A DNA stretch of 63,263 bases, filler included, from Stramenopiles sp. TOSAG23-6 (GCA_900128565.1; 5 parts of 5 records of this genome joined end to end with filler, not necessarily neighbours in it), one strand, 5' to 3'. Counted from the first letter of the whole stretch, positions 1-59,869 are shown. Program-made: numbers and translations. The notes: generated from the sequence alone by a model not told the origin.

Positions 1-52
1 ACGAAATTTCGTATGAAAAAAAAATTAAATTAGAAATTCATATAAAACATAC
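1..52 (-). mobile_element. Introner-family intron, partial (cut by window start)
   Basis: GT|GTATGT donor followed by a TTCATACGAAATTTCGT core. Confidence 0.8.
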
Positions 53-1378
53 ACGTTCACAGAACTTATACGTTTCACAACAAAATAAAACTGGGACATT
101 ATAGAAATGAGCCGTCATTGCAACGGATGCAGTACCAGATCTGCCAAGAACTGCGCCATTTGAAAACACAGACTCACAGCCCATAATCACTTTTGTAGCT
201 TGCTTCATTACGTAAGACGTAGCACTGACCATAACATATGTGCAAGAGATACCTTCACTTAACAAACTACTCACAAGAGATTTTCCAGCTAAACAAGGTC
301 GTGCATCTATAACAACTACTCTGAAAGTTCTGCCAGCTAAACGAGCCGCTATTAAGGTTTGTTCTACAATGGGCACTCTTCCAAAGGTTACAACGACATC
401 ACCATCAAGTATTTTTGTTTTAGCAACATTTACTATGCAACTAGACGCAACTGTAATCCGTTCTTCAATAAAAGCAGAAATTTTTTCACATAAGATTGAC
501 TTTGCATCTTCATCAGGCATTTCAGGAGGAGAAGTCGAAATTTCCTGCTTTAACCATTTTACAGCATTACCCATTGAAACCGAATGATGCCGACAACGTA
601 CTAAAAAATCCATCTGAACAGTTAACATCTTTACTAGATCACGACAGAGGGCACTATCCATTGGGGGGCGGTAATCGGAAATAAAGCAACGGAAGGCATG
701 AAACATTGCTACACAACGCGCATTGGCACCTGTGATTTTACGATCTGCGAATAAAAGTCCCACTTTTTGCACAGCAGGATGAACATTAACCTCACCACAA
801 TGTATCCCAAGTGCGCGAGAGCCAGTGAGACTGTGGTCAAACTGCTGGAGGTGGGAAAATAAAGGCACAACTTTGGCGTCACGTTTTTTTCCCTGGGAAT
901 GTGAGGCTTTGGTCTTGGATTCTTTATTACTGGTACTTTTGTTTGGTTTCTGTTTACCCCCACGTTTTGCTGCCTTCTCTGCTCTTTGTGCCTCTTGAAT
1001 TGCTCGGCGTTCTGCCTTTGTCAATTTTGGCTTCTTTGGATAGCCACCAGGGGGTGGAGCTCTGGTTCCACGATTTTTCTTTGTTTTTTTAGAACCTTGC
1101 GAAGTAGAACTGTTTTGACCTCTCATCACTGGAATTGCTGGGAATGACGCATCCGGTATAGTAGTTTGCAACTCACTTTTACTGAGTTGCATAGATTTAA
1201 GTTTCGACGTTAAATCTTTATTAGAATCATTATCTGATTTGAGTGCAGGACTCCAACCGGCCAATTGACCCCGATAGTTCTCAGGAAAACTATCTTCTAT
1301 ATTATTACTTGTGCCTTGAGCACTCAAAGTGCTAGTCGAAGGCCCTAATGAAGATACACCACAATTAGAAGGCTCCAT
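53..1378 (-). CDS. EIF2B4: Translation initiation factor eIF2B delta subunit (3' part beyond window)
   Basis: TKAERRAIQEAQRA, VPLFSHL, HPAV..GANARC, SMGNAVKWLK and CETYKFCER motifs. Exon ends at an intron donor (CGT|GTATGT). Confidence 0.93.
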
Positions 1379-1626
1379 TCAAACTACAATGTCTATTATA
1401 TTATAATCTAATCTATCACTAGAAGTGTGATGAGGTTAGCAGTTTGTGGATGATTTCGAGTTTATAGTACTTCGTGGAGTGCTACTACTACCAAAGAAGA
1501 TAGTGTGGCCAGATGTCACTGAAAGTCTGAAACACGAAAGGCACGTGTTTTACGGTACCCGGTAATTTGAAAAAAAAATTCCAAAATTTTTCTTTTTTAT
1601 TGAAAAAACTTCATTTTTACTCAATG

Positions 1627-4600
1627 TTAAAATTTCCAAGGACCAGCATACATTTTATTATTCTTATTGTCATGCCTAATTAGAAATTCAGCGGAGTCTT
1701 TAAAATCTCTCTCCTGAGGGGAAGGATGTATTGTGAAAAAATATTTTAGAAAAAAAATAGTTAGGTACAAAATTTCGTATGAAAAACAAATTGAAATTCA
1801 TCATGAAAACATACATGTTTACTTGAACTTGTTCGGCCAGTAAATTTAGGTGGTTTAGCTTGTGAGTACAACCAGTGACGATACTTCATGCCTGATACAC
1901 AGCCATGGCCATGCACTTGATCATCTCGTCCTTTTTTACCTAATCCATGACCATTCTTGTCGAAACGATGTGAATGAATTCCAGTATATTTTGCAGAGTC
2001 AGTTAGTTTATCAAATATGCTTGTCTTTTTACTTTCAGCATTATGTCCAATGTTATCCTTTGTGCTATTTATAATAGTATGAACACGTTTATTCTTTTTC
2101 TTTTTCTTTGCTACTGGTATATACTCATGTTTAGGATCTTCCGACATTAGCTGTTTTGCTCGATTTAGTCGCTCTTTTGCAACAGCTGAATTGTTGACAC
2201 CAGTAACATGTATTTTGAAAAAATATTTCACAAAAAAAATAGTTAGGTATGAAATTTCGTACGAAAAAAAAATATTCGAAATTGAAAACAAATAAAACAA
2301 ACATGATTTTTTGATGTAACTTCTGGTCCAAGAAAGAAAATTTCTCTTTTTTCATCAGAACTACTTCCTTGGTCATTATATCTCCTTCTGAAATGTTTTT
2401 TATTCAAAAGATTGTTTTGCACACCTTGTGCAGTGAGATCTACAGAAGATGCCACTCTGATAGAGCCATCCTTTTGGATTACTTCTTCACCCCACTCTCG
2501 TGAACCTCTGCCTAATTTACGGCCTCGGATATCATATGGAGATCTGTCAACTAAATTATTGATTGTAGGATGATAAAGGGGTCCTGTTTTCGAAGGACCA
2601 CCAACACGCCAAGTTCCCGTATATGTCGTTTTATCATCGTGGAATTTAAGAAGCGTTGGAGAGTTTTTATCAAATAAAGTAATGTTGTTCAAACTTGGGT
2701 TTGTTTTTGCTCCACTGGAGGACAAAAGTTTCTTCAAAAATGCCGAATGCGATACATTCACTCTACTCGCAAGAATTTCAGTAAGAGCAAAAAACTGCGC
2801 AAATGAAATGAACTTTTGGCGCAAATCTTTCACCGCTGTAAAACTCAGATCAAGGTCTACATTGCTACACCTGTTTAAATGTGAGTCTCTTGCTAGTTTT
2901 ATTAAAGTTCGAGAGTCCATGTGATATTGATTGACACCTACGCCAGTAATATGTTCAGGAGTATTAAACCGAATTTTTTGATTTTTCCTTCTCATGCCAA
3001 ATGCACAATACTTTATGAAAACTTGTTCTAATTGTTGAATCATATCTAAAGTTATTGGCTTCTGGACAGGCCGCCTCTTTTGTTTTTGTGTATGCCTACT
3101 TCCTATGTACAGTACCTTAGTATCTCGTTTTTTTGATCTATTAATATAATGTTTGGCTCTCAAAGGTAATTGTCCTCCGAGCAATTGATCTAAACGTAGT
3201 GGTGACTCTAACATACCACTTTCATCAATACGGGGTGGTGGTTCTGGCGGTAGCAACGACTTCTGTTTACTTGATAATAATTGCTTTACCCGTATTTTTT
3301 CATAATGCGCATTTGCTCTATCTAAAATTGCTTTTTTAGATTCTTTAGAATACTGTTCTATCATGTGTTTAATACTTTCCACCCGACTAATAAGAGCTTG
3401 ATCCTTCAGTGATAAATACCCTTCAAGTTTACGCCTAAATTCTGAAAGATTGTCGAGTTCGGGAACTCCATCTTGCTTTAAAATCTGATGTACTGCCTGT
3501 TTAAGATTCTCTGTAGATGGAAACTTTGGTACATCTAGTTCCACGATTTCAGCTTCTATTGGTCGTATTGTTTTCTCGGCAGTAGATACAATACCTAACT
3601 TGTGTATTTTCTCTTTATGTAGTGCTTCTTGTGCATTCTTTACAGCTTTTTCCTTCTCATAGAATTTTTTTGCTGCTAACGATTTTGTATTATTCGCAAA
3701 TGCCTTTGCTTCTTTGGCAGATTTGCTTGCCATTTCTTCCGCCTCTCTTGCCTCATTTGCCTCTTTCACAGCTAATGCATGAGCAGATTTTGCACTTTGT
3801 AATAAAATATTCGCTGCACCCAATTTGCGTTTCGCTTCTATCATTACTCTACTTTTCAAAGTGGATTCCACTCCTAAATTTTTGTTTTCTTCGCATAATC
3901 TGTCTACAGTTGATTGTGCTATTTTAGCGTTTTTTTTCGCATACACTTTTGATTTTGATGCTACCATTTTTTTACTTTCTTTCTGTTTCAACAATAGCGA
4001 AGCTTTCCTCTTTTCTTCGACCTTCACTTTTGCTACCATTTCTGCAACCTTTGCCTTTTCATGTGCAGCTTTAGAAGTTTCACGGGCAATCGCTTCCTTT
4101 GCTAGTGCAACATTACTTGCTTCAACTACCCTGGCTCTTGTTATTGTGTCAGCTTTTAACTTTGTGTTTGCATCGGCTTTTGTGATTGTTTCAGTCTTTG
4201 CTTTTGCAATAGTTTTAGCTATTACTATAGTTTCTGCTTTTGCTTCTGTTGGCTTTGCTTTGGCTACTGCAGCTGCTTTTACCTTTGCCACGGTTTCCAC
4301 TTTTGCTGCTGTTTGATGTTTTTCTTCTAATTCAGAAGTTGTTTTGAACTTTGCTTCTACTTCAGTGTTTGCTCCTATGTCATCAAGATTCTCTTTAGCT
4401 CGTCGTTCTTCAGATTTTTTTTGGGTTACATTTTCATGCAAAGTTTTACACTTTGTTTTTGCAACTTTGAGACTTTGTTTGACTAATTCTACTTTTTTAT
4501 GAGCTTCATCTAGAGTCGTAAGCAACTTTGAATATTCGATCTTACTACCTTTCGATTTTTTTAATGTCTTTACTCGTTTTTTTATCTTTGATGCAACTTT

Positions 4601-22046: not shown

Positions 22047-23392
22047 ATGTCAATTCCGAAAAATAATGCAAGTACTTTGGATAGAATGCTCACTGGTGGC
22101 AAATATGTATCAAAACCTATAGACGTGCTAGATATGCGAAACATTGCACCAATCACATCTAAGCAGGCAGTCGAGATGGCACTGGATCTTAAATTTCAAC
22201 TAGATCATCGATTATCTTTCAAGTCAATTCCATTAAAATCAAAATATAGGGATTGCGCCGCCGCTTACGAAGAGATATCTAGAATGTACCAAATAGCGCA
22301 TGAGTGGGAAGCGGCAGCTGATGCTATGGCACTCGTCGCAAAATTCCATGTTTCACTAGAAAAAACTTTAGAAGCCGCGACATATTTTGAAGAAACTGCT
22401 CAGTTCTACAAACGTGCTAAACTTGAGCCAGAATATGTTGAGCACCAAGAAAAAGCCATTTTGCTATATGTTGAAGGTGGAAATCTCAGTGACGCAGCAG
22501 CTTTAGAGGAAGTTCTTGCTGAGCTTTCTAATTCTGCCATGGAAACTCAAGAAGCACTAGAGCATTATGATCGTGCAGCCTTATATCTACGCGAAGATGG
22601 TGAACTTATAAAGGGTGCTCATATAAGTGTATGATTTCATTTTAATTTCGGATTTTTTTTTTTTTTTCATAGAAAATTTTGTACTTATATGTTTTTTTTT
22701 GAAATATTTCTCAGAATACATGCATATGTGGCTGAACTTTCAGGACAAGCAGAAGAATATGAAAGATCTCGAAATGAGTTTGTTCGTGTGGCAAATGTAA
22801 TGTTGATGCATAACTTAACCCAGTTCAATTCTCGTGAATACTTGTTAAATGCATGTATTTGTCAATTACTTTTGAGCGAGGAAATAGAAGTGGATAGCTA
22901 TGTATGTGACTCTCTCATACATTTCAAAGTTCTGTTTATACTAAATTTTGTGCTTAAAAAATTTTTCACTAAAACAAAATATTTTTCACAATACATAAAC
23001 TGAAAAAACACTGCACAGAATTTATTAAAGAGTGTTGCACTATAGATTGTATGTTTGGTTCTACAAGAGAATGTAAGTTTATGTATGATTTGCTTGAAGC
23101 GTATTTAGTTCCATCAATGGATGATTTTGCAGATCATGTCTACAATTTTGATTCTGTGGTACAACTCAATTATTGGCGGCTGACAATGTTAAACAGAATA
23201 AAAAAAAGTATCGCATTTGAGTTAGATATTGAATTAACTGATGATAGTGATATAAGCGACTACTCCTCCGAAGATGAATCTGAATATGAGTCAGATGAGG
23301 ATGACAGTGAATACACAGAAGCTGAAGATGATGATGGTTATGGCGAGGATATTGTCAGTGATAATGATGAAATTTCAGTGACGTCAAAATAA
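22047..23392 (+). CDS. Alpha-SNAP-like (NSF attachment protein) TPR protein; exons 22047-22628, 22722-22901, 22997-23392
   Basis: Helical SNAP-like repeats. Splicing restores ID.MFGSTRECKF; acidic C-terminal tail. Confidence 0.75.
22629..22721 (+). mobile_element. Introner-family intron, GT-AT, 93 nt
   Basis: AGT|GTATGA...CAGAATACAT|GCA. The nearby CAG would give a frameshift and stop. Confidence 0.8.
22902..22996 (+). mobile_element. Introner-family intron (diverged), GT-AT, 95 nt
   Basis: TAT|GTATGT...ATATTTTTCACAATACAT|AAA. Restores the frame. Confidence 0.8.
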
Positions 23393-24851: not shown

Positions 24852-25274
24852 TTACAAATTCAATGAATTAAAATGTCCGATTTCTGCTCCCTTTACACCA
24901 ATGTTATCCACTTTGTACAATCCTCCAGCTCCAGGATGAGAGACACTTAATTCATCGCCATCCGTCCAGTATTCTCTAGCTGTGGTGATATACAGATCAT
25001 GTATTTTGGAAAAATATTTCAAAAAAAAAAAATAATTTTTGTTAGGTACAAAATTTCGTACGAAAAATTCAATTTCAAATTTAAAAAAAAAATAAAACAT
25101 ACATTTAGAGACGGTCCCCCGAATGCAAGTAATGTGAAAAATATTTTTTTTTTAGTCAAAAACAATTCATTAGGTACAAAATTTTCATAGTAAAAAAAAA
25201 ATTGAAATGAAAAAGAAGAACGTACAACGGCGGTGGTTTGAGGCCCAGCTTCGACAGGCAATTCAACAACACTT
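24852..25274 (-). CDS. SMP-30/gluconolactonase family, 3' part; exons 25274-25226, 25126-25103, 24998-24852
   Basis: Spliced product VVELP..QTTAVAFGGPSLNDLYITTA..AGGLY. Confidence 0.88.
24999..25102 (-). mobile_element. Introner-family intron, GT-AT, 104 nt
   Basis: AAT|GTATGT...CAAAATACAT|GAT. Confidence 0.88.
25127..25225 (-). mobile_element. Introner-family intron, GT-TT, 99 nt
   Basis: GTT|GTACGT...CACATTACTT|GCA. TT is duplicated at both ends. Confidence 0.85.
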
Positions 25275-25432: not shown

Positions 25433-25434
25433 CA

Positions 25435-35610: not shown

Positions 35611-37974
35611 TCAGTTTCCTAAATTTCTTTTCTTTTTCAATGAATTATTAGATGAATTTTCATCAATTTTGCGTTTTCTACTTTCAGAAAAATCATGTTG
35701 AATCAATTTTTTGGCAACGCTAAACGGAATATCTAAACCTACATGACAACGAGTGATACCTTGCTCAAAAGAGGAGCAACGTAAAACTTTAATGCCTTTA
35801 TTAACATCATGAAATGTTTGCCGATACGCTTCTTGAATAGTTGCCCATATTTCTATAATATTACCACACAAAAGTGAATGTGTCTCCATTCGATTTTTAT
35901 ATTTGCTAGTACAAGGTCTGGTACCTGTTTAGTGAAAAAATATAATATACATTTAAAATACATTAGGTATGTATAAAAACGACTTTTAAAATTGTAATGA
36001 AATGATGAAAATNTACATGGTATCGTTCTACAGGTTATACATTGACCGCAGTTATCTTGAGTGGTGACGTCATCATCATTAAGTGAGACACGTCCCGCTT
36101 GGGAATGTTGATCCATCCAAAGTTGGCGAATATTTTCAATTTCATGGAATGATGAATTACGGTGATCTTTTGCTTTACAAGATTTTGTTGAAAGTTGAGT
36201 TTGAATATTTTTCAAAGTTGGCCGGTCAGTAAACTCTGTCTTTGGAAGGTTAGTATTGGAGATTTGTTGTACAATCTTCTTGAAAATATTTGGAGCCATA
36301 TTCTTACTACGTTTGTGTGGATAATACACTGTAAATTGCGTATGTTGAGGAAATCTTGACCTTTTAGATAACTTGCGCTCAAGTTCTTGTGAAGACATTT
36401 GTTCTAGCCCCTGAGGTAAAACTTCCATAAATAGCATGCACTCACGACGCCGAGAGCCTTGTCGGGGAACCCAACTGTAAAAACCATCATGAGAACCAAA
36501 AAACTTGTACGAATGGGATGCTCGACGTAAAACATTTCGACCACTCCAACCATCAATTTGTACATTATTATTTACATCATCACCAATGATATTCATTCTT
36601 TTTTGTTTCAATCGAGTCATACGAACAATACGATCTTTTAACAAGTTTTCAGCGGATTCAAAAGATCGGCCAAAATCAATGGAACATTCAACAACTTCAG
36701 CACAAACACCTTCATCGTTTGTTTGAATTATTTTAGGTAATTCGCATTTATTAAGAAAAAATATTTGGAAAAAAAAATCGTTAGGTACGGAATTTTCTAT
36801 AAAACAAAATATTTTGACATTCAATTCTGAAAACATGCATAATTTAACACTCGTTGCGCCAAGTTGGACTGCTGATTGAACACCTGGATTCCAAGTATCT
36901 AACATTTTTGCTTCATCCACTTTTTGTTTGTAGCAAGCAAGAAATGCATCAAATATATAATTTTGCCAAGCATAAGGGTAATTTAAAACACGATTAGCAA
37001 AACCTTTGAAAGTGTCCCATTTTCGTAAACCTCCACCACCATAGCTAAGTTTTCCTATAATACAAAGTATGAATGAATTAAGCTTTTCTATTTTTAAATA
37101 ATCAATATCCTCATCATCCTCATCCTCATCACCTGATATACTCAAATCAATATCGTCTTGACTAAAATCAGGTCGATTGTATTCTAATATTTTTTGTACT
37201 CCAGACGCAAGATCCTCAGCTAAATTAAGAAATTCATCACTTATACTTACATCCCACATATTTTTAATTGTACCATCAGCAACACATGGTAACATCAATT
37301 CACCTGAAAATTCTTCTTTATCATTCTTATTTTGTAATTCTTGAGCAACAGTACCAAAATTTTCTTCACATTGAAATTTTCTACTATTTTTACTTATAGC
37401 TCCTCGTAAATCATTCAGAGCTTGAATACCATACTCATTTTGCCAGTTCATTTCTTCAAATAAACTACGACCTTTCTTATGCTCGCCACCAGCAAAAGAA
37501 GCAGAACGATCGCCACGTGTCAATGCTCCTAAAGATTCAAGTCGTGATGTAACTGCAGAAACAAAACGTTTCTCGCCACCTAATTCAGTAACAAAAACTT
37601 TATACATAGGCGGAATGCGTTGATTTGTTCGATGTACTCGTCCCATCATTTGTAATGCAGCATCAGCAGCCCATGGAAGTTCAAGTACAATGTTTACATG
37701 TAATTTTTGGAAAATAATTTTTTTTTTGTACAATTTGAAAGATTGTTAGGTACGAAATTTCGTACGAAAAAACAATGTAGAAAAAAAATTGAAAAAAAAA
37801 ACGTACACGACGACGTTGGCCAGCTATAGGATTATTGCGTTCACAATGCATTGAAATACCAGTTGCAGCAGCACTTGATATTATTGCGACGAATTTCTCA
37901 CCTCTTTGAAATGCTTCTTTTTCTTCTGCATTACTTAAATAGCGATCTTCTAATCTTAATTCATTCGTCACAGC
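35611..37974 (-). CDS. SBNO: Strawberry notch-like helicase, 3' part; exons 37974-37807, 37697-36839, 36745-36017, 35924-35611
   Basis: AIISSAAATGISMH, QRRRV..LELPWAAD..LQMMGRVHRTNQ, GGEKRFVSAV..RLESLGALTRGDR. Confidence 0.92.
35925..36016 (-). mobile_element. Diverged family intron with canonical GT-AG ends, 92 nt
   Basis: CCAT|GTANAT...TACCTAAT...ATATTTTTTCACTAAACAG|GT. Confidence 0.75.
36746..36838 (-). mobile_element. Introner-family intron, GC-AT, 93 nt (3n)
   Basis: TTAT|GCATGT...CCGTACCTAAC...CTTAATAAAT|GC. Confidence 0.72.
37698..37806 (-). mobile_element. Introner-family intron, GT-AT, 109 nt
   Basis: CGT|GTACGT...AAAATTACAT|GTA. Restores QRRRV. Confidence 0.9.
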
Positions 37975-38304: not shown

Positions 38305-39232
38305 TTATACTAAGGGAATCGTTAATGATCCAACTGCACCCCCATCGACAGGAATTATAGCACCCGTAATCCAACTTGAAGATGCAGAACTCAGAAAAAT
38401 AGCAGCACCAGCTATATCTTTTTTCCCTCCAAAACGTTTTAATGGAATACCTTCTTTAATTTCTTCAGTTGTTGCATATTTTTCTAAGCCTTGACTCATC
38501 TTTGAAGGGATATATCCAGGCGCTATTGCGTTAACTGTAATAAAATGGCTTGAAAGCTCTGAAGATAAACTTTTTGTTAGGTGGTGAACACCCGCTTTAG
38601 ATACATCATGTATTTTGGAAAAATATTTCAAAAAAACATTTAATTTTTGTTAGGTACAAAATTTCGTACGAAAAAAAAATCAAAATTGAAAAAAAAATAA
38701 AACATACATAGGCAAAGGTTGGTGTGGACTGTGGTAGTATTCCAGCAATTGAGCCGATATTAATCACTCTTGCTGGATCATCCTGTGTTGCAACATTGTC
38801 AAGAAGCGGTAAAAGACTTCTTGTAAGATAATAAATTGATTTTACATTCAAATCAAGAACCTTATCAAAACCTGCTGTGCTATTGATATTTGAGTGATCA
38901 AATTCTTCACCCCAGGATGTTCCTGAATTGTTGACTAGCACGTCTAACTCTTTTAAACCATATTTATGTTCAAGATCATCTGCTAATCTATTGCAACCAT
39001 CCAAACTTGATATATCTGATCCAAATCCAAATGCTTTACCATGACCTGGTTGTGATTCCGAAAGATCAGAAGCTACATCTGCACAATCTGAACCATTTCG
39101 CGATGTAAGATAAACAGTTGCACCATTTTCAACAAAACTGGAAGCAATCATTTTTCCAATTCCTCGTGCTCCACCAGTAACAAGAACGGTCTTGCCAGCA
39201 ACACTAAATAGACTTTGAAGAGACGATGTCAT
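38305..39232 (-). CDS. Short-chain dehydrogenase/reductase (RhlG-like); exons 39232-38708, 38607-38305
   Basis: TGGARGIG, LVNNSG, catalytic Y|DVSK split by the intron, ITG..IPVDGG. Confidence 0.93.
38608..38707 (-). mobile_element. Introner-family intron, GT-AT, 100 nt
   Basis: TAT|GTATGT...TTCGTACGAAATTTTGTACCTAAC...CAAAATACAT|GAT. Confidence 0.92.
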
Positions 39233-39457: not shown

Positions 39458-40872
39458 ATGGCCATATTTGTTTTAGCACTAACATTCCTATTGTGTAGAT
39501 ATAGTTTGGTATCATCTAATATGGTATCGAAAGACATCATGGATAACTCTACAAAAGCTTTAACTTTGTACAATCCTGGAGCCGTTCTAAAAAAGTTGTA
39601 TTCACCTGTTGTTGACTTTAATTTTGCTGAAATATCTGGAAGTTTCATTGTGAAAATTAAACAGAATATGAAGGGAAAAGGAACGGGTTCAGCTTCTTGG
39701 GATGGTGGGTCCGCAATGGCACACTTAATTCAGAATCCTGATATACTTTTACTTCCACCAAATAGAGGAGGAATTGACTGGTTTCCGTTAGGGTTAGAGT
39801 TAGATGAAACAAACAAAACGGACATTTCACTAAAACAGCCTTTACCTGTAAAACAAGATTGGAATTGGTTAGGAAAACGTGTTGTTGAATTGGGTTCCGG
39901 TCTTGGATTAGTAGGTTTAGTTGCAACTATGCTTGGTGCGGAGGTTTTATGTACCGATGGAGACGAAGAGACTTTAGAAATTGCCGAGAAAAATATAAAA
40001 GATAATATCTCACGCTTTAAAGCGCAAAACGTAGATAATAACGTAGATAATATTGGACAAGCTCATGTTTCTGCATATGCATGGGGATCTGAACCAAATG
40101 CAATGTTAGAAAGAGCATTTGGTTTTGCATATAATTCAGAAAAAATGGAAAAGCTAGGAAACCCTGACCCTAACAAAAATAATATTTATCCTGATGTTGT
40201 AATCGCAGCTGATGTGATTTATGGTGGAAATTCTGAAGCTTGGCACTTATTCATTGAGTCTCTTGCGGCTTTATCAGGTCCAAATACGGTTGTTTTGTTT
40301 GAAATTACAGAGAGATATGCCCGGGAGAAGTATTTATTTATGAAGAATCTTGGTCGACCCGGTAGAAATCATAACGGTTGTACGTTTTCATCATGAATTT
40401 TCAATTTTTTTTTTCATACGAAATTTTGTACCTAAGATTTTTTGTTTTGAGTTTTTTTTCGATACGTTTTTCATCATGAATTTTTTACCTACATTTATTT
40501 CATACGAAATTTTTACCTAACGAAACATTTAAAAAAATGAAATATTTCTTCATATGCATGGCACTCGAGGCGAATTTCTAATGACCTACTACACCCTGAA
40601 TTCCAAAACTCACGTGTGAGTATGTATGTTTTAATTTTTTTTAAATTTCGAATTTATTTTTTTTATAGGAAATTTTGTACCTAACAATTTTTTTATGATT
40701 TTTTTGAAATATTTTTCCAAAATACATATATCAACTGACAAAAAAAAATGGAAGTGTGATGAACGATGAAAATACTAATGGGGAATGTTATGTTGGACGT
40801 TTGCACAAAAAAATCACAAAAGAACAACAACGGATAAAAAAACAAGCTTACGAAAGAACTCTTCAATCCTGA
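39458..40872 (+). CDS. METTL21-like (family 16) protein-lysine methyltransferase; exons 39458-40379, 40560-40623, 40728-40872
   Basis: GTG...WDGG, VVELGSGLGLVG, DVVIAADVIY, and spliced LLHPEF...SIYQL. Confidence 0.85.
40380..40559 (+). mobile_element. Tandem double introner intron, GT-AT, 180 nt
   Basis: GGTT|GTACGT...(TACGTTTTCATCATGAATTTT...CATACGAAATTTT..ACCTAA)x2...ATATGCAT|GG. Confidence 0.75.
40624..40727 (+). mobile_element. Introner-family intron, GT-AT, 104 nt
   Basis: AT|GTATGT...CAAAATACAT|A. Confidence 0.85.
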
Positions 40873-41094: not shown

Positions 41095-42451
41095 ATGGGA
41101 ATGTCGTTACCGGACTTTTGCAAATTAATTGAATCTCAACTTATACCTCGTGAATCTCTAGAAAAATATGAAGTCTTGATAAATCGGCTGCGTAGTATTA
41201 AAAATGAATACTTATCTCATTATTTATTATTAGTTCCAGGTATTAATATAAGTAAAGCTGTAAAGATAATTTGTGATTATTACCCGGTAGACTTTTGCTG
41301 GTCGCCTTGCTTAGAACCTAATTTTATGGCACTGCTGATGCTACACGGCTTTATATGCATAGCAAGTGAGGTTAGGATACCTCCTATATCATCTGGTGTC
41401 GCAAAAAAGGTGAGAGGCAAGAAGAAAAAGAAAAAGAAAAAGGCAAAAGAACATGTTGTGTTGATGCCAAAGTTGCACCTAAAACGCTCTTTATTATGTA
41501 GTTGGAAAGATTTACACGTTTCGAAGTCAGTAAGAAAACGCAGTAAACATTTTTCTCTCACGTTTAATTCGTCATTTGACCTTGTTGTTACGGGATGTCA
41601 AAAGCAACATGGTAAGGCGTGGCTTTATCCACCAGTAGTCAGTGCATTGCGGTACTTATTTGATCAGACACATGCAAATATAGACATAATTAATGATGAA
41701 ATGGTAAATGAAGTCAAAACTGAAATGGTTGGTGAGTTGAAAACTGAAATGGTTGATGAATTGAACAACTTGCAAGAAAGTATTAGTGCCTTACATACTT
41801 CTGAAGGAAAAAATATTGCACCAAATGAGCCATCAAATGATGCTACTAATAAAATTGGTCTCCATTCAGTCGAGTTGTGGTACAATCCAATATCTACAGA
41901 TAATTCTGGTAATAACTCATTAGAAACGCCCAGATTAGTTGCTGGCGAAATGTACGTTTTATTTTTTTTCAATTTCAAACTTAATTTTTTTTCGTACGAA
42001 ATTTTGTACCTAACAAATTTTGACTACATTTTTTTTTCCACAATACATTGGTTGTGTTGTTGGTAATGTTTATACAAGTTTAACAGGATTTTCTGATAGA
42101 ACTGTTTCAGCTGCTGGGACGGTACAGTTAGTTGCATTAGGGCGAGCTTTAGAATGTATGGGCTTCAAGCTATGGGATTTAGGGATGCATGTATGTTTCC
42201 ATTAGGAATTTCAATTTTCTTTTAATACGAAATTTTGTACCTAACGATTTTTTGACCGAAAAAAAATATTTTTCACAATACATATGTCTTATAAGGAGCG
42301 ACTTGGTGCTAAAGAAGTGAATAGGTCAGATTTTTTATCAAAAAGAAGTCTAGATTTAGTACCAAAGCCAATGTTACTTTCCATGGGTAGTAAATCTTGT
42401 AGTGTTGGACAAGGGATCAATGCTCGGGATATTATAGACAAGAAATTATAA
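41095..42451 (+). CDS. Leucyl/phenylalanyl-tRNA-protein transferase-like; exons 41095-41951, 42049-42190, 42284-42451
   Basis: LMPKLH..R, QHG..WLY, HSVELW, LVAGEIG..VG.VYTSLTGF, AGTVQL, WDLGMHMSYK.RLGA. Confidence 0.88.
41952..42048 (+). mobile_element. Introner-family intron, GT-AT, 97 nt
   Basis: GAAAT|GTACGT...CACAATACAT|TGGT. Restores AGEIG. Confidence 0.9.
42191..42283 (+). mobile_element. Introner-family intron, GT-AT, 93 nt
   Basis: CAT|GTATGT...CACAATACAT|ATG. Confidence 0.9.
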
Positions 42452-45772: not shown

Positions 45773-48700
45773 ATGTCGACATCGCCAAGAATTCCTCCGA
45801 GATATCGGAGGGGTTCAGGCTCACAAGAAGAAGTTGAACATAATTTAGAGACCAATATTGATCTTAGTAATAGTTCAAAGAAAATAGAATCTCAAAGTTT
45901 ACAAGACTATAGTTTTGCGAAATTAGCTCCTACTGAAAGTCCAAGAAAATTAGACCTAGATGATAGTTTAAGAAATAGAGAAACACATACGCCTGATTAC
46001 GATAAATGCTCAGATGCAGGCTCTATAAACACAAATGATACTGATGCAGAATTCAGACCACTTGTGTCTGCTGGGACTGCAGACACTGATAATGCCGAAA
46101 TTCCGCCTCGTCCAATAGACTCTGCTGGGACTGCAGATACAAATGATGCCGAAATTCCACCTCGTCCAATAGACTCTGCTGGTACTACTGCATCTATTAG
46201 TGATCCAATTAATTCAGTTGAAACCACTGACTCAAGTAGCATTTTTTCGAGATCAGCGGACAATCAATCTAGTGTACATACTACAGATGAAGACGATGAT
46301 GTATGTTGTTATCATTAATTTAAAATTTATATTTTTTGTACCATATTTTGTACCTAACAAATTTTTGATTAAACAAATATTTTTTTACAACTCATGAAAA
46401 ACAGAGGAAGTATTTAGAAAAGTGTATTCAAAAGCAACGAAAAATAAGAAACCAATTGGTTCAACAACAAAATCAAAGTCGGCATATACAACATGATAAA
46501 AAAAAGGGGAATAAGAAACCAAAACCAAATTATAAACAGGAAAATAAATTACCCACAATGACTTTACCTGTAAAGAAAGCAAATCTGGCACAAAGTGGGA
46601 GAGATAAGCAAATAAGAAAACAAAAACGAAAATCAAATTCGTCTTCAAAGCCTCCAAGACAAAATCGTAATGCAAAACGGAACTCTAACCGGCAAAAAAC
46701 GAAATCCTCAGTCGCTAAACGCAATAAAAAAAATGGTGTCAAAGAAAACTTACGGGTGATTGTTCGTGTACGGCCGATTAGAACAAGCGTTTCTGAGCAC
46801 GAAACATCAGTAGTTGTGTCGTGTAATGTCGAGAAGTGTAAAATAACTGTGACAGGATCTAGAGGAGACTATCAAACGCGTTTAAATGTACGTTTATTTT
46901 TTTTCAACTTGGAATTTTTTTTCGTACGAAATTTTGTACCTAATGAAAAAAAACATTTTGAAATATTTTTTTCACATTACATAGTAGCGGCGGTCCTCGA
47001 AGTGATCGAAGAAGGACAGCTATGGAATGTCAGTATGATGAAGTATTTGATACATCTTCTACACAAGATGAAGTATATTCATCTGTAAAAGATTCAGTAT
47101 CAGCTGTTCTACGAGGAATAAATTGCACCATTTTTGCATATGGACAGACAGGGACCGGGAAAACACATACAATGCTTGGTCAAGGAATTGAAGATATATG
47201 TACAAAGGGAGTTAATTTAAGTCCTCGAGAAAGCCAAAAATGGGGCATCATTCCGCGCGCATTAAAAGATATCTTCCAGCGATTTGATTCAATGCCCTCC
47301 GATATAAAAATAGAAGTCACATGTTCATATATGCAAATTTATAAGGATCAAATATTTGATCTCCTTCAAGACCCCGAGCGCACAGAATCACTTCGTATTC
47401 GTGCACGCAGAACAGATACACGCGGTGGTTGTGGATCGACAGGAGGTATTCCTCCTTCGTCTCGAGCTCGTCGTCGTACTCCTGATAACGATAGTGATGA
47501 GTTGTATGTTCAGGGACTTTCGGAATATAAAGTTAATAGTCATAATGATGTAATGAAGCTATTATATCAAGGTGGGCGAGCACGAGCTATACGATCAACA
47601 GAAAAGAACGAACAGTCAAGTAGATCACATACAATTTTGCAAATGAGTTTTGTGCTTGAGTCTGGTGCAAAGACAGATGTCACAGTTATTCGTCGAAGTA
47701 AATTAAATCTCGTAGATTTGGCTGGATCTGAAAAGTGGAGTAAGGGGAAACAAATGAAGAATGCTCGAGTTAGTGAAATGACTAAAATTAATAAGAGTTT
47801 ATCAGCCTTGGGTAATTGTATAGCTGCTCTCTCTGAGAATGGCCGAAAGCATATTCCATATAGAGATTCTAAGTTGACACGAATTTTACAGGATTCACTT
47901 GGTGGTAATACACGTACAATAGTTGTAGCTACAATTAGTCCAGATAGATCTTCAACTGAAGAAACATTATCAACACTTGCATTTGCAGACAGAGCTAAAC
48001 GAGTAATGACACGTGTAGCTATTAATGAAGTTGTAAGTGATGCTACGTTACTGAAACGCGCAAAGGTTGAAATTGGCCGCTTGAAAGGAGTAGCATTACA
48101 GACAACAGAAAAATTACGTATTGACAATAAACGTCTACTTGGTGATGTCAGTGTACTCAAAGGTCAATTATTTAAATATAGACAACGTGTGAGGGAACTT
48201 GAAAGGAACGAGAAGCTTAATAAAAAAAGAATAGATGAAAGAAATGTTTCAGGAAAAGAAATATTGAAAATGGGGTTAACGTCTAAAAGTCCCGCCAAAA
48301 CTAAAACTCCTAAGAAAAAATCACATAAAATATCGAAATCATTTATAGAAAATGGCTTGAATTTTCAACAGAATATCATTGATAAGAACAGTTTTGGTGC
48401 AACAACGTCGTCGATAGGAGGTTCTGGTCACTCAAGAGCAGGCGCAGGTATATTTACACCATGGACAGATGTCTCATCACCTCGTCGTAGATCAAGAGTA
48501 AATAGGCAAATAAAGTTGGGTCTTGAACCTTCAGCAACTATAGAACAAAAACAAGCTGACTATTTAAGAACAGATTCCATAGGGAAACTAAAAGGAGTTG
48601 GCTCGCCGTCTTTTAGTAACAATCTTTATCCGTTCACCCCACTTCCGGGTGCTGCAGGGTCTAGATTTTTTTCAAACAATACGCCAGTGAAAACTCCTAT

Positions 48701-49979: not shown

Positions 49980-50608
49980 TCATGAATTAGAAGCCACTGG
50001 AGGTGCAAGTAGTGGCGAATGGCCTGTAGAATCTCTGTCGTTCAGGTTCAGGTTGGGGTTAGGGTTAGGGTTAGGGTTACTACGAATACTACAGGCAAAA
50101 GGGATACTACAAGCTGTGACGATTGAAATTCTAATCAAAGCGCTCATAAAACTTTCATTTTTCAAAAGTGCTGTAGANACTAATGGTCCTATAATAAAAC
50201 CTAAACAAGTAGAAAAGTCTTGGACAGCAAATGTATTGTGAAAAAATATTCTTTTTTTTTGGGGAAAAAAAAATCGTTAGGTACAAAATTTTAATTGTAA
50301 AACAAAATTCAATTTATGATGAAAACGTATATACTGCGGCATAAGATCCTAATCCACTGCTATCCACTGTATCTGCTAAAACACTCATTATAGACACTTC
50401 AACAAATGCTACAGATATTCCCACTCCAAAAAGCGCTGGAATAATAACATACAAGTGTAACCAAATATAAAGGAAAGGAATTGAAACAATGGCCAGAATT
50501 ATCCCAAATGTAATTAGTTTCCAAATTTTTATTGAGGAGTCTGAGAGGAATCCACTAATTGGAGTTCCAATGAGATAACCTACAGTGCTTGAAAACCAAA
50601 CAAGACCT
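49980..50608 (-). CDS. MFS transporter (SLC18-like), 3' part; exons 50608-50331, 50230-49980
   Basis: GLVWFSSTVGYLIGTPISGFLSD...YAAVFAVQD...LGFIIGP. Confidence 0.78.
50231..50330 (-). mobile_element. Introner-family intron, AT-AT, 100 nt
   Basis: GTAT|ATACGT...TTTTGTACCTAAC...CACAATACAT|TT. Confidence 0.75.
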
Positions 50609-50763: not shown

Positions 50764-52896
50764 GGGAAGAAAAAATCATCACGAAATTCGAAAGAGATAA
50801 AGTCTGTTTCTCAAGTAGAAGATGCTTCACCAAGGAAGAATCTTCACAAGCGGCCAACATCAGATATTGGCTATAATATTTCTGACTCTAGTAAAAATAT
50901 TGTAAAAACAAAGATTACACAAGACAAGTGGACAGAATGTGAAAATCCAGTGACTCGAGAGCAATACTGGTACAATACTTCAACACGTACGAAAACATGG
51001 ATGTTTCTTTTTTTCAATTTCAAATTTATTTTTTTTTTCGTACGAAATTCCGTACCTAACGATATTTTTTGTGATTTCGTATTTTTTCACAATACATATA
51101 CTAATCCATTTACGTCAAGAATAACACAAAAAATACAAGAAAAAGACTGCGACATACTACAAAGTCAACCCACACAACAAATTGAAGATATCACCAAAGA
51201 TAAATTACAAATCGACACCGAGCAGAAAATTGAGAAAGACCAGAAAGAAAATTATAGTTCTAAGGTTTTTAAGGTTGAGAAGCCATTACCAAAGTTAAAT
51301 CTATTTGAATGGGCACTACCAGACGACGATGATATGGCACCAGATGAAGCACAAGTAAATACAGAAAATCAAAAATCCATTTCAAATAATCAAATTACAG
51401 GAAATACAGAATCTCATTCTCAGATTCCACAAAATCTGTCGAAACACAAAGAGTTTCGACGTGCCACTGCACCTGCACAATATATTGAAAAACAAATAGC
51501 AAAGACGCCAGATGAAACACAAGTAAACATGGAAAATAAAAAAATACCGATTATAAGTAATCAAACTGTAGGAAATACAGAAAGGGATTTCCGAAAATCG
51601 CGTTCTCAGATTCCTCTAAAACTATCTATACGCGAAGAGCTTCAACGTGCCACCGAAATAGCAGATCTCAAAGAGCGATGTAGTTTTGCAGAGACCCAAC
51701 TAAAAAGAACAAAAGAAGAACTAGGAAGAACAAAAGAGGAATTAAGAATAATAAAAGAAGAGTTGATAAAACTAAAGACATCTACGTCGAACCGAATATC
51801 AGAACAAGAAGATCGACAAAGAGAATTACAACCAAGGGGATATGGACAGAAATTATCACGAGAACGTTTTGAAAAATCAACAGAGAAGACATTTGATGAA
51901 AATGAAAATTTAATGAGAAGATTAAAAAAATTTGAAGAATCAACGGAGAAGACATTTGATAATAATGAAAATTTAATGAGAAGATTAAAAAATCCTGTAA
52001 GAACTTTTGAAGAATCAATGGAAAACACTCACGATAAAAATTTAATGAGAAGATTAAAAGTTATAGAACGGAAATGTGACGGATTGTACATAAAATTGAA
52101 ATCTCCAAAAAATGTTTCACCTAAATCTAAAATGCCAAAACGGGCATTACATATTCCAGAAGAGTTCATTTCAGCAGAGTCTAGTACAATAAATCCTGTA
52201 CCGCCAAGAAAAGACAAACCGTCCCTAGAAACATCAATGCGATTAATGATGTATACTTCGCCTCAAAGAGAACCAAAAAGATGGCAAGCTAGGGAGTTAT
52301 GGAAAGACAATGGTACAACTCAGTCTGAAAGTTCAGATCCACCATCACCCAACAAATTACCAGAAGAAGATACTAAATATGAGTATCAACCAGAAAACGA
52401 TACCAAATATGAGTATAAAGCAGAAGAAGATATCAAATATAAGTACCAAGATTCGTTCAAAATACAAACTGCATTGAAAAGAAATAAGAATAACAATGAT
52501 GATTCTTCAAGTGGGGAGCCACCAATGCAAAATATTTATACCAATAATTTACCTTCAAATTTTGAATCATCAATACCAAATATTCATAACAATAACATGT
52601 CTTCAAGTGACGAGCTTATATCAACGCAGAGTTCATATAAAGTAGTTGTACGCGAGGATCAAATTCAAAAGCGGCTTAAAGAATTGGAAGAAAAGGTCAA
52701 TAGTGTGATGTCTGAAAGAGCATCAAGAAAATCAAATATAGAGGATGAAAAAAAGGAAGGGGGCGTCACTCAGTACTATTCTAAGGTCGAAAAGCCACCA
52801 CCAAATTTAAATTTATATGAATGGGAATTACCAGACGACGAAGATGAAATAGACCAGACGCAGACGTCACAACTTTCTTCAAATAATTTTTTATGA
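50764..52896 (+). CDS. WW-domain coiled-coil protein, 5' partial; one intron at ~50999-51097
   Basis: KWTECENPVTREQYWYNTSTRTKT(W/Y)TNP, a coiled coil, and a duplicated KVEKP.P.LNL.EW.LPDD motif. Confidence 0.72.
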   Translation, partial: GKKKSSRNSKEIKSVSQVEDASPRKNLHKRPTSDIGYNISDSSKNIVKTKITQDKWTECENPVTREQYWYNTSTRTKTWMFLFFNFKFIFFFVRNSVPNDIFCDFVFFHNTYTNPFTSRITQKIQEKDCDILQSQPTQQIEDITKDKLQIDTEQKIEKDQKENYSSKVFKVEKPLPKLNLFEWALPDDDDMAPDEAQVNTENQKSISNNQITGNTESHSQIPQNLSKHKEFRRATAPAQYIEKQIAKTPDETQVNMENKKIPIISNQTVGNTERDFRKSRSQIPLKLSIREELQRATEIADLKERCSFAETQLKRTKEELGRTKEELRIIKEELIKLKTSTSNRISEQEDRQRELQPRGYGQKLSRERFEKSTEKTFDENENLMRRLKKFEESTEKTFDNNENLMRRLKNPVRTFEESMENTHDKNLMRRLKVIERKCDGLYIKLKSPKNVSPKSKMPKRALHIPEEFISAESSTINPVPPRKDKPSLETSMRLMMYTSPQREPKRWQARELWKDNGTTQSESSDPPSPNKLPEEDTKYEYQPENDTKYEYKAEEDIKYKYQDSFKIQTALKRNKNNNDDSSSGEPPMQNIYTNNLPSNFESSIPNIHNNNMSSSDELISTQSSYKVVVREDQIQKRLKELEEKVNSVMSERASRKSNIEDEKKEGGVTQYYSKVEKPPPNLNLYEWELPDDEDEIDQTQTSQLSSNNFL
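50999..51097 (+). mobile_element. Introner-family intron, 99 nt (3n), atypical donor (GG, or AT if shifted +2)
   Basis: ACAT|GGATGT...TTCGTACGAAATTCCGTACCTAAC...CACAATACAT|AT. Confidence 0.75.
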
Positions 52897-57811: not shown

Positions 57812-58149
57812 GTTGGATCTATCAATATCAAGAATGTATTTTTACAACAGCTTTTGTTGGCCCAATGGGCAAAATAATATGATTTGATTTAGTATGTTTT
57901 TGATTAGTATAAAGTGTAACGTTTGTAACGCTTTTCAAAAAAATGGCGATGGAACAAACCTGTAGAAAAGGGGGAATCGAAAGAAAAAAATGGACAATCA
58001 TCAGACATTTGACTATTTACGATCGATCACACAAACACACACACCACTACCAAGGTTTCTTTTCGCTAACAAGGTTTCTTTACATATAATTAGCCTACAT
58101 GCAACAGAATTGCCTACAATAATTTTGTTGTCAAGACTATCTTCCAAAG

Positions 58150-59869
58150 ATGAGTTCAAGCAGTAATATTCATCGAAGCGCTTCTAATAGTAAACCTGAG
58201 ACTCTTGAGTTATCAAACCGTGCACTTCTTGCGCAGGAACGTCATTCACAAGTTCTCCTTGACTTGGAAACCCAGCGCCGTGCACGTACTATCGCTGTTC
58301 CTACTCTTGATTCCGATGTAAGGACTTCACTTCGTGAACTAGGTTATCCTGTCACTTTATTTGGTGAGCGTAAGGAAGATCGTCGTGTTCGTCTGCGAGA
58401 AATTACAGCTCGTATTGAAATATTGGGAGAAGAGGCTGCGTCTATTTCGAAGTTAGCTTCTATTAAGTCTGGCTGGAGTAGACCTGGAAATGAAAAATCT
58501 ACCACAGGTGAACAAGAAAATGTTCAAAAGGAAATAGTGTATACTCCAGCTTCCGAACCATTGTTAAAAGCACGTCAAAGTATTGCCACGTTTTCTTGGT
58601 CACGTGCAAAAGATCGGATAGCTTTTCGCAAGAAGAAAAAAAAAAGTGTAGAGTTGGTTGAAAAAGACGCTGTAATGATTAAAGATAAATACAAAGAGTT
58701 AAGTAACGTTCGTATGAGAGATTCACAGATTGGGAGTACGCGTCCAGTTGCTGCATGCACATTTTCTTCTGACTTTAAAAGTAAATACGTTGCGACAGCT
58801 TCGTGGAGCGGTACTTGTATGTTTTATTTTTTTTCAATTTCGACTTTTTTTTTCGTACGAAATTTTGTACCTAATGATTTTTTTTTTGAAATATTTTTCC
58901 AAAATACTGCTCAATTATGGGATCGGCAATCTTGTGAGAGTCTTCTTGTGTATCGTGGACACGAAACCCGTGTCGTTGATATCCAGTTCCACCCATCTGC
59001 ATGTCATGGAACTTTAGAAACAAACGCTTCAACTTATTCTATGACGGCTGCTACACCAACAGCTTCTTGTGCGTGTGTTGCTACTGCTTCTGCTGATAGC
59101 ACTGTCAAATTATGGTCATTAGAAGCTGACGAATGCCTTCGAACATTACGTGGCCATCAAAATAGATTAGCATGTGTTCGATGGCATCCTAATGGTTCAT
59201 TTATAGGAACTACATCATATGATCATACGTGGCGTTTATGGGATGTGGAATATGGACATGAGATTCTATTACAAGATGGAATAGGCGTTGCTGCTTATGC
59301 ACTTGCATTTCACCCTGATGGTAGTCTTGCTTGTACTGGTGATATGAATGGCGATGCAAGATTATGGGATATGCGTTCGGGACATAGTCCATTCTCTATG
59401 CAAGAACACGCTAGTGGCGTAATCTCTGCTGATTTTTCACCGTCCGGGACATTATTAGCGACAACTGGACTTGATCATATGTACGTTTTCACCATGAAAT
59501 CCAAATTTTTTTTACTATTAAAATTTCGTAAGTACCTAACATTTTTTTTTTCTGATGCTTTTTTCACAATACATGGTACGTTTGTGGGACTTGCGGATGC
59601 GGAAATGTTATCATGCTCTTCTAGCACACTCCAAATTAATATCCACTGTAAAGTTTGCACCTGTAAGTGGTGAAGTTCTATTGACGGCTTCCTACGATGG
59701 AACAGTGAAACTTTGGGGGACTCGAGATTGGAGACTATTAAGTACTTTAGACGGACATGAAAATTTTGTAATGTGTGCAGATATATCACGAAGTGAAACT
59801 CTATTTTTATCATCTTCTTTTGATAGAACTTGGAAATTATGGGCACCGGAGAACGATGATGAGTGGTAA
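58150..59869 (+). CDS. PRPF4: U4/U6 snRNP protein PRP4; exons 58150-58816, 58910-59480, 59575-59869
   Basis: SFM motif VPTLD..VR..LRELGYPVTLFGE...RR.RLR, SQIG..RP, and WD40 repeats. Confidence 0.94.
58817..58909 (+). mobile_element. Introner-family intron, GT-TG, 93 nt (3n)
   Basis: ACTT|GTATGT...CAAAATACTG|CT. Restores SWSGTxQLW spacing. Confidence 0.85.
59481..59574 (+). mobile_element. Introner-family intron, GT-AT, 94 nt
   Basis: CATAT|GTACGT...CACAATACAT|GGTA. Restores DHMVRLWDLR. Confidence 0.9.

Follow-up and report, generated by a model that had tools for sequence, protein, structure and literature searches.

Apart from the initial GT, no signal of spliceosomal introns is as constant as the terminal AG, and the stretch of DNA analysed here, a 63,263-nt window, raises the question of how genes can be read when the intervening sequences within them lack it. 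Coding sequences in the window are interrupted by one family of related elements, typically ~95 nt long, which begin like spliceosomal introns, carry an intron-like branch motif, and end mostly in AT. At a probability of roughly 0.6 for the mechanism as a whole, the sequence is best read as an introner family that would be removed by a U2-type spliceosome accepting YAU as the 3′ splice site.

The window consists of five ~12.5-kb contigs (12.5-12.6 kb, in descending order of length) placed end to end with linkers of N44, a 12-base six-frame stop, and N44 (12623-12722, 25333-25432, 38028-38127, and 50663-50762). The window is not one molecule, and genes separated by a linker do not lie next to each other in it. 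The window is gene-dense with a G+C content of 32-42%, its long open reading frames (ORFs) are closed by standard stop codons, and it encodes eukaryotic proteins including EF-1 gamma, a nucleoporin, a kinesin, PRP4, a strawberry-notch helicase, and flagellar proteins. After removal of the elements, ORFs cover 89% of the window and ~11% is non-ORF. The best database match of one gene was a 257-aa protein with the source name 'eukprot:GSMAST32.ASY1.ANO1.365.1', which hints at a marine stramenopile of the MAST-3 kind. A marine origin would also fit the sampled sequence words, of which DNA runs contain 0.88-0.90 and seawater metagenomes 0.34-0.49.

A multi-copy family of sense-oriented elements

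The window was scanned in two rounds of profile search; the boundary of each element was then set from coordinates, with the donor placed at GTAYGT. A profile hidden Markov model (HMM) built from 25 simple copies of the element yielded 35 copies, of which 29 are complete, four are cut by contig ends, one is truncated, and one is decayed. They are distributed over 16 host genes, 14 with complete copies and two with a contig-end copy or the truncated copy. Many similar copies in unrelated genes of a single genome, here 35 copies in 16 genes within 63 kb, are the mark of introners.

All 35 copies are in the sense orientation relative to their gene, and 34 are within coding sequence. The exception is a fragment just past the stop codon of the gene for an MFS transporter, which has lost GTAYGT and the terminal block, a loss to be anticipated if splice signals persist only in places from which the element has to be removed. 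On the reverse strand, the HMM generated only weak matches, at 17 of the 29 complete copies, and these are shadows of a palindromic core. The 24-nt core itself had 21 matches in the window at ≤3 mismatches versus 0 in 100 shuffles, and contains a perfect 12-nt palindrome (e.g. 41991-42014 (+)). Part of the core also makes the only RNA structure that recurred in folds, a 6-bp hairpin whose 3′ arm abuts CTAAC. No exact match to the 24-nt core was found in metagenome, viral, or genome contig collections, and no relatives of P0121 were found in a protein scan of metagenome contigs; these searches yielded neither an empty site nor a cDNA nor a copy outside the window.

The 25 simple copies show a mean identity of 70% (range 53-91%), with conservation in the 5′ hexamer, in the core with CTAAC, and in the last ~16 nt. 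Four other elements, of 142-180 nt, are composites, each with an internal duplication.

An earlier note on this DNA had described about 35 related inserts in 18 genes, all sense-oriented, none intergenic, with a GTAYGT donor and a CTAAC-type branch motif, and had called the family genome-wide. The multi-copy, intron-like nature of the family, the number of inserts, their orientation, and the consensus motifs (counted below) are borne out by the profile search; the number of genes falls to 16, and the absence of intergenic copies is nearly right, the decayed sense fragment past the MFS stop codon being the departure from it. 'Genome-wide' was extrapolated from 63 kb; the one point in its favour is that four of the ten contig ends fall inside elements, which we attribute to a high-copy repeat breaking the assembly.

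Canonical 5′ and branch signals with a non-AG 3′ end

The complete copies resemble U2-type introns in their 5′ and internal signals. GT is found at the start of 25/29 and GC at the start of 1/29, and the donor is GTATGT or GTACGT in 21/29. CTAAY occurs in 27/29 copies; its distance to the 3′ end is 34-48 nt in 26 of them and 18 nt in the remaining one, a composite. A T-rich tract comes after the motif. This arrangement agrees with the branch region of U2-type introns, in which CTRAY lies ~18-50 nt from the 3′ end together with a pyrimidine-rich tract.

The 3′ end does not show the terminal YAG of U2-type introns; its consensus is CAT. The 29 complete copies end in AT (24), TG (2), TT (1), GT (1), and AG (1). 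With the three 3′ halves at contig ends (AT, AT, and TT) included, the tally is AT 26, TT 2, TG 2, GT 1, and AG 1 of 32. The exon ends in AT at 19/29 copies, where GT-AT, TG-CA, and AT-AC all yield the same product; GT-AT is the pair possible in the largest number of copies (22/29). Two other pairs were considered and rejected. A pure AT-AC reading is impossible in 10/29 copies. TG-CA, which resembles integrase-type termini, is possible as a splice pair in 21/29, but leaves no duplication.

Such terminal pairs could also be handled by a minor (U12-type) spliceosome, or a transformed one, tolerant of GT-AT, AT-AT, and AT-AN. U12-type introns have the 5′ consensus RTATCCTT and a branch site TCCTTAAC ~9-15 nt from the 3′ end. 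In keeping with this route, the family starts with GTAT, the copy at 50231-50330 starts with AT, ATAT opens the interruption at 24075, which is outside the family, and conservation over the last 16 nt of the family exceeds what a pyrimidine tract would require. In the available text of the cited reports, GT-AT introns spliced by U12-type machinery form a recurrent non-canonical class (PMC1557818), and Physarum has 1,014 non-canonical U12-type introns, 17% of them GT-AT and 8% AT-AT, with U12-type branch sites 9-12 nt from the end (bioRxiv 10.1101/2020.10.12.336362). However, the position of CTAAY in 26 of the 27 copies is too distant for a U12 branch, and the sole U12-like stretch near the 3′ end would place the branch A ~6 nt from the junction. 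Positions +5/+6 are GT, not the CC of the consensus given above. As neither the 5′ site nor the branch distance is of the U12 type, we consider removal by this spliceosome improbable.

Exact removal restores the interrupted genes

The lengths of the complete elements fall into the three classes modulo 3 as 11/9/9, and 18/29 would shift the frame if retained. When boundaries were set blind, by alignment column against one reference copy, 20/26 junctions were in frame versus a chance rate of 1/3; the six out-of-frame junctions are misplaced boundaries or composite copies. With coordinate-corrected boundaries, an in-frame solution exists at the family terminus for 29/29 complete copies, and once they are taken out each of the 14 interrupted genes reads as one ORF, the longest having 1310 aa. 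The joined MFS transporter has 608 aa (six elements), the strawberry-notch protein 724 aa (three elements), and the kinesin 1310 aa (two elements).

The reading frame sets the removed length modulo 3 only, and the exact length is set by homology. Eight junctions are spanned by homologues or Pfam profiles; seven of these matches are co-linear and ungapped, and the eighth has a gap of one residue. Exon 1 of the short-chain dehydrogenase gene ends with TFAY and exon 2 starts with DVSKAG, which gives the same YxxxK spacing as in P0002, P0003, and P0012. The joined strawberry-notch protein aligns ungapped with P0122, P0123, and P0124 at three junctions, and position 89 of the Pfam profile Helicase_C_4 closes one exon while position 90 opens the next. 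Likewise, the Pfam SNAP profile passes from 158 to 159 over the junction of 22629-22721. For the joined MFS protein, alignment with P0272-P0274 is ungapped at two junctions, and another junction has the one-residue gap. Only chance hits resulted when the 47- and 55-aa exons were compared with solved structures.

Splicing at nearby canonical or other sites, leaving proteins with small deletions or insertions as in public gene models, was weighed against exact removal. Over 272 aligned columns, the public model P0001 shows no difference from the dehydrogenase locus 38308-39232 (-) save two gaps and the junction, which it places between a GT lying 4 nt inside the element and an AG lying 13 nt inside exon 2; this junction was reproduced exactly. 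However, it drops the YxxxK lysine that 3/3 inspected homologues keep, and P0001 contains two further, implausible 'introns' of 21 and 24 nt in exon 1, which remove 7 and 8 codons encoded in frame. P0001 therefore looks like the product of a GT-AG-only predictor.

In 20 of the 27 copies with a branch motif, the interval from that motif to the 3′ end is free of AG. Counting from 8 nt beyond the branch A, the first AG lies in frame in 10/27 copies, which favours nearby sites and equals the chance rate, and out of frame in 17/27, which argues against them. Four junctions have an AG close by, at -5, +2, +4, or +5 nt, each in the wrong frame, which would have to be bypassed. In MFS intron 1, use of the CAG at -5 would hit a stop codon, whereas the junction after CAT reproduces the motif of P0272. 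Moreover, the seven ungapped junctions are obtained only with exact removal. Splicing at nearby sites is thus very unlikely, and, judged from these frames and alignments, AG does not set the junction; non-AG 3′ ends follow from the exactness of removal that the conserved proteins require.

These results bear on the remaining claims of the earlier note. Its tally of 3′ ends (26 AT, 3 TT, 2 TG, 1 GT, and 1 AG of 33) was reproduced with one TT fewer, presumably that of the truncated copy, and its preference for non-AG ends over nearby AGs with compensating frames agrees with the chance-level rate of in-frame AGs. The YDVSK motif that it expected in the dehydrogenase is restored with the spacing of three homologues. 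Among the other conserved proteins said to be restored by excision, the strawberry-notch and MFS proteins are confirmed by ungapped homologues; at the transferase and PRP4 junctions Pfam adjacency was uninformative, as it also was at the kinesin junction. The interpretation given in the note is partly supported, a spliceosome that can do without the 3′ AG being an inference.

The elements might instead never be removed. They could be recent transposon insertions that disrupted their genes, or artefacts that arose during single-cell amplification or during assembly. In favour of this, the draft assembly contains 374 N and at least one broken gene, that for isoleucyl-tRNA synthetase, which has a frameshift and, judged by motifs of the family, lacks a block of ~85 residues; in addition, three complete copies are open in frame. 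Against retention stand the sense orientation of every copy and the location of all but one in coding sequence, the 18 complete copies that would shift the frame, and the 14 genes, including those for PRP4, kinesin, and strawberry-notch helicase, that would all be dead. Splice signals are conserved in copies otherwise only 53-70% alike, and the sole copy outside coding sequence is the decayed one. As to artefacts, independent seawater DNA runs share 0.49 and 0.34 of the sampled words of 28000-37999, values that reflect word sharing only. Five metatranscriptome runs contain 0.05-0.12 of the sampled words of 28000-37999, a level uninformative on expression or habitat. Retention of the elements is hardly credible on these grounds. 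DNA elimination of the ciliate type, in which TA-bounded segments are lost from the somatic DNA of organisms with nuclear dimorphism, was rejected as well: no TA...TA registration reproduces the product, there is no variant genetic code, and the best match mentioned above carries a marine-stramenopile source name. Taken together, the sequence evidence indicates that the elements are very probably removed, by some means, at the predicted junctions.

Two features of the MFS sequences were recorded apart from the junctions. MFS exon 4 (~31290-31590 (-)) encodes a long histidine/glutamine-rich low-complexity stretch in the central loop. P0272, a Logan-derived relative of 204 aa on a 937-nt contig with 54% identity, matches the MFS protein up to GWP and continues with an arginine/glycine/alanine-rich tail unlike any homologue, which may be intron read-through or a frameshift in that organism.

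A probable two-nucleotide target duplication at the element borders

The bases on either side of the elements were compared for the 29 complete copies. Exon base -1 is T in 29/29, and exon base -2 is A in 19, G in 6, and T in 4. Intron base -2 equals exon base -2 in 23/29 copies versus a permutation mean of 17.0 (P = 0.00029), and the whole dinucleotide is the same in intron and exon in 20/29 versus 16.1 (P = 0.0068). The complete copies with T at intron -2 (n = 3) all follow an exon T at -2, and the G copy (n = 1) follows an exon G. Intron base -3, by contrast, does not vary with the exon. This association looks like the signature of a 2-nt target duplication, and by it the family appears transposon-like. 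As the gene is restored when the element and one copy of the duplication are taken out, the 3′ splice site would be built of target sequence, and hence not be AG. An A|T insertion of the helitron-like type was rejected, as it would not yield the association at -2.

The dinucleotides disagree in 9/29 copies, namely GT/AT in five, TT/AT in one, TT/TG in two, and the sole AG-ended copy. These disagreements run towards A at -2 or G at -1, which are the canonical bases, and might reflect selection on a weak site. The terminal inverted repeat, another possible transposon mark, is only ~4-9 nt long.

The borders also resemble those of introns excised without a spliceosome, in which paired intron ends form a hairpin that juxtaposes the exons, as has been proposed for the non-conventional introns of euglenids and the introners of Amoebophrya. 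The element has a short inverted repeat at its ends and a 2-4-nt direct repeat across its boundaries, a layout like that described in the available text on Amoebophrya (PMC7789003). A terminal helix of ≥4 bp with a 2-nt 3′ overhang was seen in 4/12 minimum-energy folds. However, the folds were weak and inconsistent, with z-scores of -3.0 to +1.0 and only 2/12 at ≤ -2.9; in 4/12, the 5′ end paired with the internal core instead. Stable end pairing of the euglenid or Amoebophrya type was thus not found in the 12 folds. Position 4 alternates between C and T without a matching change at the 3′ end, and GTAYGT and CTAAY are exactly the targets of U1/U6 and U2. Excision through a hairpin of this kind would be quite surprising.

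Proposed mechanism

The members of an introner family would be short, non-autonomous, transposon-like pieces of DNA that create an intron wherever they insert in a transcribed gene. Here the element proper would extend from GTAYGT to ATAC, its ends forming an inverted repeat (GTAT at one end and ATAC at the other) extended by T and A runs, and transposition at the DNA level would leave it flanked by a 2-nt target duplication, NT, mostly AT. The element would contribute a strong 5′ splice site of the yeast type and, behind a small hairpin, the branch site CTAAY, but no AG. Restoration of the gene is predicted to need a cut behind the second duplicate, so that the target itself would dictate the 3′ end, which is mostly CAT.

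As GTAYGT is recognised by U1/U6 and CTAAY by U2, the major spliceosome is in our view the most probable agent of removal. In yeast-type systems with strong 5′ and branch signals, the first splicing step needs no AG. The major (U2-type) spliceosome would accordingly branch on the element transcripts in the normal way and accept YAU as the 3′ site. At YAU, the A at -2 and the pyrimidine at -3 would be kept and only the G at -1 lost, and the 3′ site would be fixed by the conserved terminal block, not by scanning for the first AG.

Several observations weigh against this mechanism. Besides the draft state of the assembly, three copies have poor-looking 5′ ends (GG, AT, and the N-containing GTANAT), ten of 27 copies offer the in-frame AG alternative, and in the SNAP gene the junction at 22902 leaves ~8 residues more than in the SNAP profile. 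Searches for near-identical transcript-derived proteins found, with the dehydrogenase exon, only the public locus model and relatives of ≤55% identity; with MFS exon 2, they found nothing among near-length proteins and relatives of ≤58% identity among longer ones. Under a clean 2-nt duplication, eight of the disagreeing copies need a later change, and we know of no transposon superfamily that duplicates a 2-nt AT target. No transposase was found among the window ORFs by Pfam, several long ORFs having no Pfam match, and no autonomous partner element was seen in the window. Finally, the window contains no full intergenic copy, where random DNA insertion would be expected to leave ~20% of the surviving copies, as estimated from the 89% ORF cover.

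The absence of full intergenic copies fits an RNA-linked insertion route as well. With respect to the mobility step only, the family could have spread by reverse splicing into other mRNAs, followed by reverse transcription and recombination and without a DNA transposase. The sense orientation of all copies and their location in transcribed sequence despite ~11% non-ORF DNA, the variant end TG common to two unrelated copies, and a window without a transposase are all consistent with such a route. On the other hand, the two terminal bases of the intron follow those of the local exon (P = 0.0003), a pattern not expected of an RNA copy; the ends of the element form inverted repeats; and selection against antisense and promoter insertions in an 89%-ORF genome could yield the same distribution. 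Spread by reverse splicing is therefore rather unlikely, and DNA-level transposition with target duplication would be the better account of the mobility step.

Features and further observations in the window

The coordinates of the elements are given in Table 1. Over the whole window, Rfam at the gathering threshold generated no match and a tRNA scan found none; neither snRNAs nor 3′ splice-site factors are encoded in it.

Table 1. Element copies in the window and one possible additional intron.
Feature	Coordinates	Strand	Remarks
5′ half of element cut by contig end	1..50	-	upstream exon ends GT; HMM E 0.0016
Element, 89 nt, GT-AT	1726..1814	-	in-frame CAG 12 nt downstream
Element, 95 nt, GTTTGT donor, AT end	2208..2302	-	set from coordinates
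SNAP-family gene element, 93 nt, GT-AT	22629..22721	+	exon end GT excludes AT-AC; Pfam SNAP positions 158/159 flank junction
SNAP-family gene element, 95 nt, GT-AT	22902..22996	+	joined protein ~8 residues longer than profile
Possible non-family or very decayed intron, ~94 nt, AT-rich	24075..24168	+	by eye; boundaries uncertain; missed by both HMMs
SMP-30-like gene element, 104 nt, GT-AT	24999..25102	-	set from coordinates
Element, 99 nt, GT-TT	25127..25225	-	upstream exon end likewise TT; followed by 24-nt micro-exon
3′ half of element cut by contig end	25275..25332	-	ends TT
Truncated element, 5′ half only	~27074..27129	+	branch motif lost; in-frame ends non-AG
Composite (dimer-like) element, 165 nt, GT-AT	28193..28357	-	in frame only if all 165 nt removed
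Decayed core fragment	30325..30369	-	just past MFS stop codon (3′ UTR or spacer), sense to MFS gene; HMM E = 0.025
MFS intron 6, 108 nt, GT-AT	30647..30754	-	homologues ungapped over junction
MFS intron 5, 99 nt, GT-GT	30900..30998	-	upstream exon also GT-ended; in-frame AG 21 nt upstream of end
MFS intron 4, 97 nt, GT-AT	31187..31283	-	set from coordinates
MFS intron 3, composite, 142 nt, GT-AT	31596..31737	-	set from coordinates
MFS intron 2, 100 nt, GT-AT	31902..32001	-	one-residue gap nearby in homologue alignment
MFS intron 1, 100 nt, GT-AT	32333..32432	-	pyrimidine tract and CAG 5 nt upstream of end, out of frame; homologues ungapped
Composite element, 143 nt, GT-TG (TG-CT gives same protein)	33440..33582	-	set from coordinates
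Element, 96 nt, GT-AT	33646..33741	-	set from coordinates
Strawberry-notch gene, divergent member, 92 nt, sole GT-AG copy	35925..36016	-	homologues ungapped over junction
Strawberry-notch gene element, 93 nt, GC-AT, open in frame	36746..36838	-	its 31 codons missing from homologues
Strawberry-notch gene element, 109 nt, GT-AT	37698..37806	-	exon end GT excludes AT-AC; Helicase_C_4 89/90; three homologues ungapped
3′ half of element cut by contig end	37975..38027	-	ends AT
Short-chain dehydrogenase gene element, 100 nt, GT-AT	38608..38707	-	exact removal gives homologues' YxxxK spacing
Composite element, 180 nt, GT-AT	40380..40559	+	set from coordinates
Element, 104 nt, GT-AT	40624..40727	+	set from coordinates
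Leu/Phe-tRNA protein transferase gene element, 97 nt, GT-AT	41952..42048	+	set from coordinates
Leu/Phe-tRNA protein transferase gene, second element, 93 nt, GT-AT	42191..42283	+	set from coordinates
Kinesin gene element, 95 nt, GT-AT	46301..46395	+	set from coordinates
Kinesin gene, second element, 95 nt, GT-AT	46888..46982	+	AG 2 nt downstream out of frame
Element, 100 nt, starting with A: AT-AT (AT-AC with a 2-nt shift)	50231..50330	-	upstream GTATAT donor also possible
3′ half of element cut by contig end	50609..50662	-	ends AT
Element, 99 nt, GGATGT donor, AT end	50999..51097	+	set from coordinates
PRP4 gene element, 93 nt, open in frame, GT-TG (TG-CT changes one residue)	58817..58909	+	set from coordinates
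PRP4 gene, second element, 94 nt, GT-AT	59481..59574	+	set from coordinates

The interruption at 24075-24168 (+) splits a repeat protein, whose repeats presumably resemble DUF4116, and the frame is lost with every GT-AG pair. A reading that stays in frame opens with AT (ATAT), ends with CAT, and has CTGAC ~45 nt from its end.

The isoleucyl-tRNA synthetase gene at 25433-26443 (+) looks damaged, with a frameshift near 26215 and a frame that departs from the family after ~26440; judged by family motifs, it also lacks the conserved block of ~85 residues. The damage may stem from a chimera formed during amplification or from faulty assembly, or the gene may be a pseudogene.

Relation to known introners and non-canonical introns

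The introners of Micromonas pusilla and Aureococcus anophagefferens are among the closest known systems. In the available text of the surveys, these introners and those found more widely are, like the present family, short, multi-copy, sense-oriented makers of introns, with short terminal inverted repeats, a target duplication within the excised unit, and aquatic protists as hosts (PMC9860276, PMC12130899). They differ in their ends and duplications: Aureococcus introners are described as GT-AG (PMC7789003), whereas the present family is non-AG in 31/32 3′ ends, and the target duplication is given as 3-9 bp in the accessible part of PMC9860276, compared with 2 nt here. As one survey, according to its available text, starts from annotated introns and drops families with unfamiliar splice sites unless they are RNA-supported (PMC12130899), the present family would be missed by it.

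Amoebophrya, another marine protist, also has repeated introns with inverted repeats at their ends, non-GT-AG termini, and direct repeats, of 3-5 nt, over the boundaries, as far as the available text describes them (PMC7789003). According to the same text, no dinucleotide pair is preferred there, the hairpins are of 8-20 nt, and U1 is apparently lacking (PMC7789003). The present family differs in having one dominant pair, canonical 5′ and branch sites, and weak end pairing. In Fritillaria borealis, most introns are outside GT/AG although the core spliceosome is kept, and transposon-derived introns are the suspected source, as stated in the portion available (PMC13326754). The two cases differ in that mainly the 5′ end deviates and termini are diverse in Fritillaria, which the same portion explains by duplicated U2AF subunits (PMC13326754), whereas the present family has a canonical 5′ end and only the last base differs. 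The Fritillaria pattern is called AG-A(N) in the available text of the Amoebophrya authors (PMC7789003).

The same terminal pairs occur elsewhere at low frequency. GT-AT and GT-TG are described as known rare working pairs of animals (PMC1557818), and, together with the GT-AT and AT-AT introns of U12 type, these cases show in the accessible text that exons can be joined after AT or TG given strong other signals, although they concern single introns or <1% of the introns of a genome (PMC1557818; 10.1101/2020.10.12.336362). In the present window, AT or TG ends account for 28/32 3′ ends, nearly all of its introns. The novelty is the dominance of the GT-AT and GT-TG pairs, not their existence.

Introns of hemiascomycete yeasts have a GTATGT-type donor and a TACTAAC-like branch site tens of nt from the 3′ end, and their first step is AG-independent. 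They thus resemble the present family in the donor, the branch motif, and its distance from the 3′ end. Yeast, however, uses the first YAG after the branch, whereas AGs near the junction would have to be bypassed in the present family.

Full-text literature searches, which did not extend to survey supplements, found no description of the present family or of a genome dominated by GT-AT introns. In the available part of the single-cell genomics paper on this lineage, introns are mentioned only in the annotation method (PMC5778133), and the word 'intron' is absent from the MAST-3 metagenome paper (PMC12614181). The main text of both introner surveys, as far as available, does not mention MAST or stramenopiles, although their supplements could list the lineage (PMC9860276, PMC12130899).

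Implications

There seems to be about an even chance that a marine stramenopile has lost nearly all of its ordinary introns and been recolonised by one introner family with a YAU 3′ splice site, its major spliceosome routinely finishing the second step at U and ignoring nearby AGs. If so, it would be the first genome dominated by GT-AT introns, in a free-living protist that pairs canonical 5′ and branch sites with a systematic non-AG end. The choice of the 3′ site in the second step would then be isolated from all else, providing a natural system for the study of 3′ splice-site selection. The family would also illustrate how the target duplication of a transposon can dictate the sequence of a splice site. 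For annotation, at least one public gene model in this region forces GT-AG and thereby loses a catalytic lysine; comparative and metatranscriptomic studies that draw on proteomes of this uncultured lineage may therefore be relying on sequences with an error at each intron of this kind.

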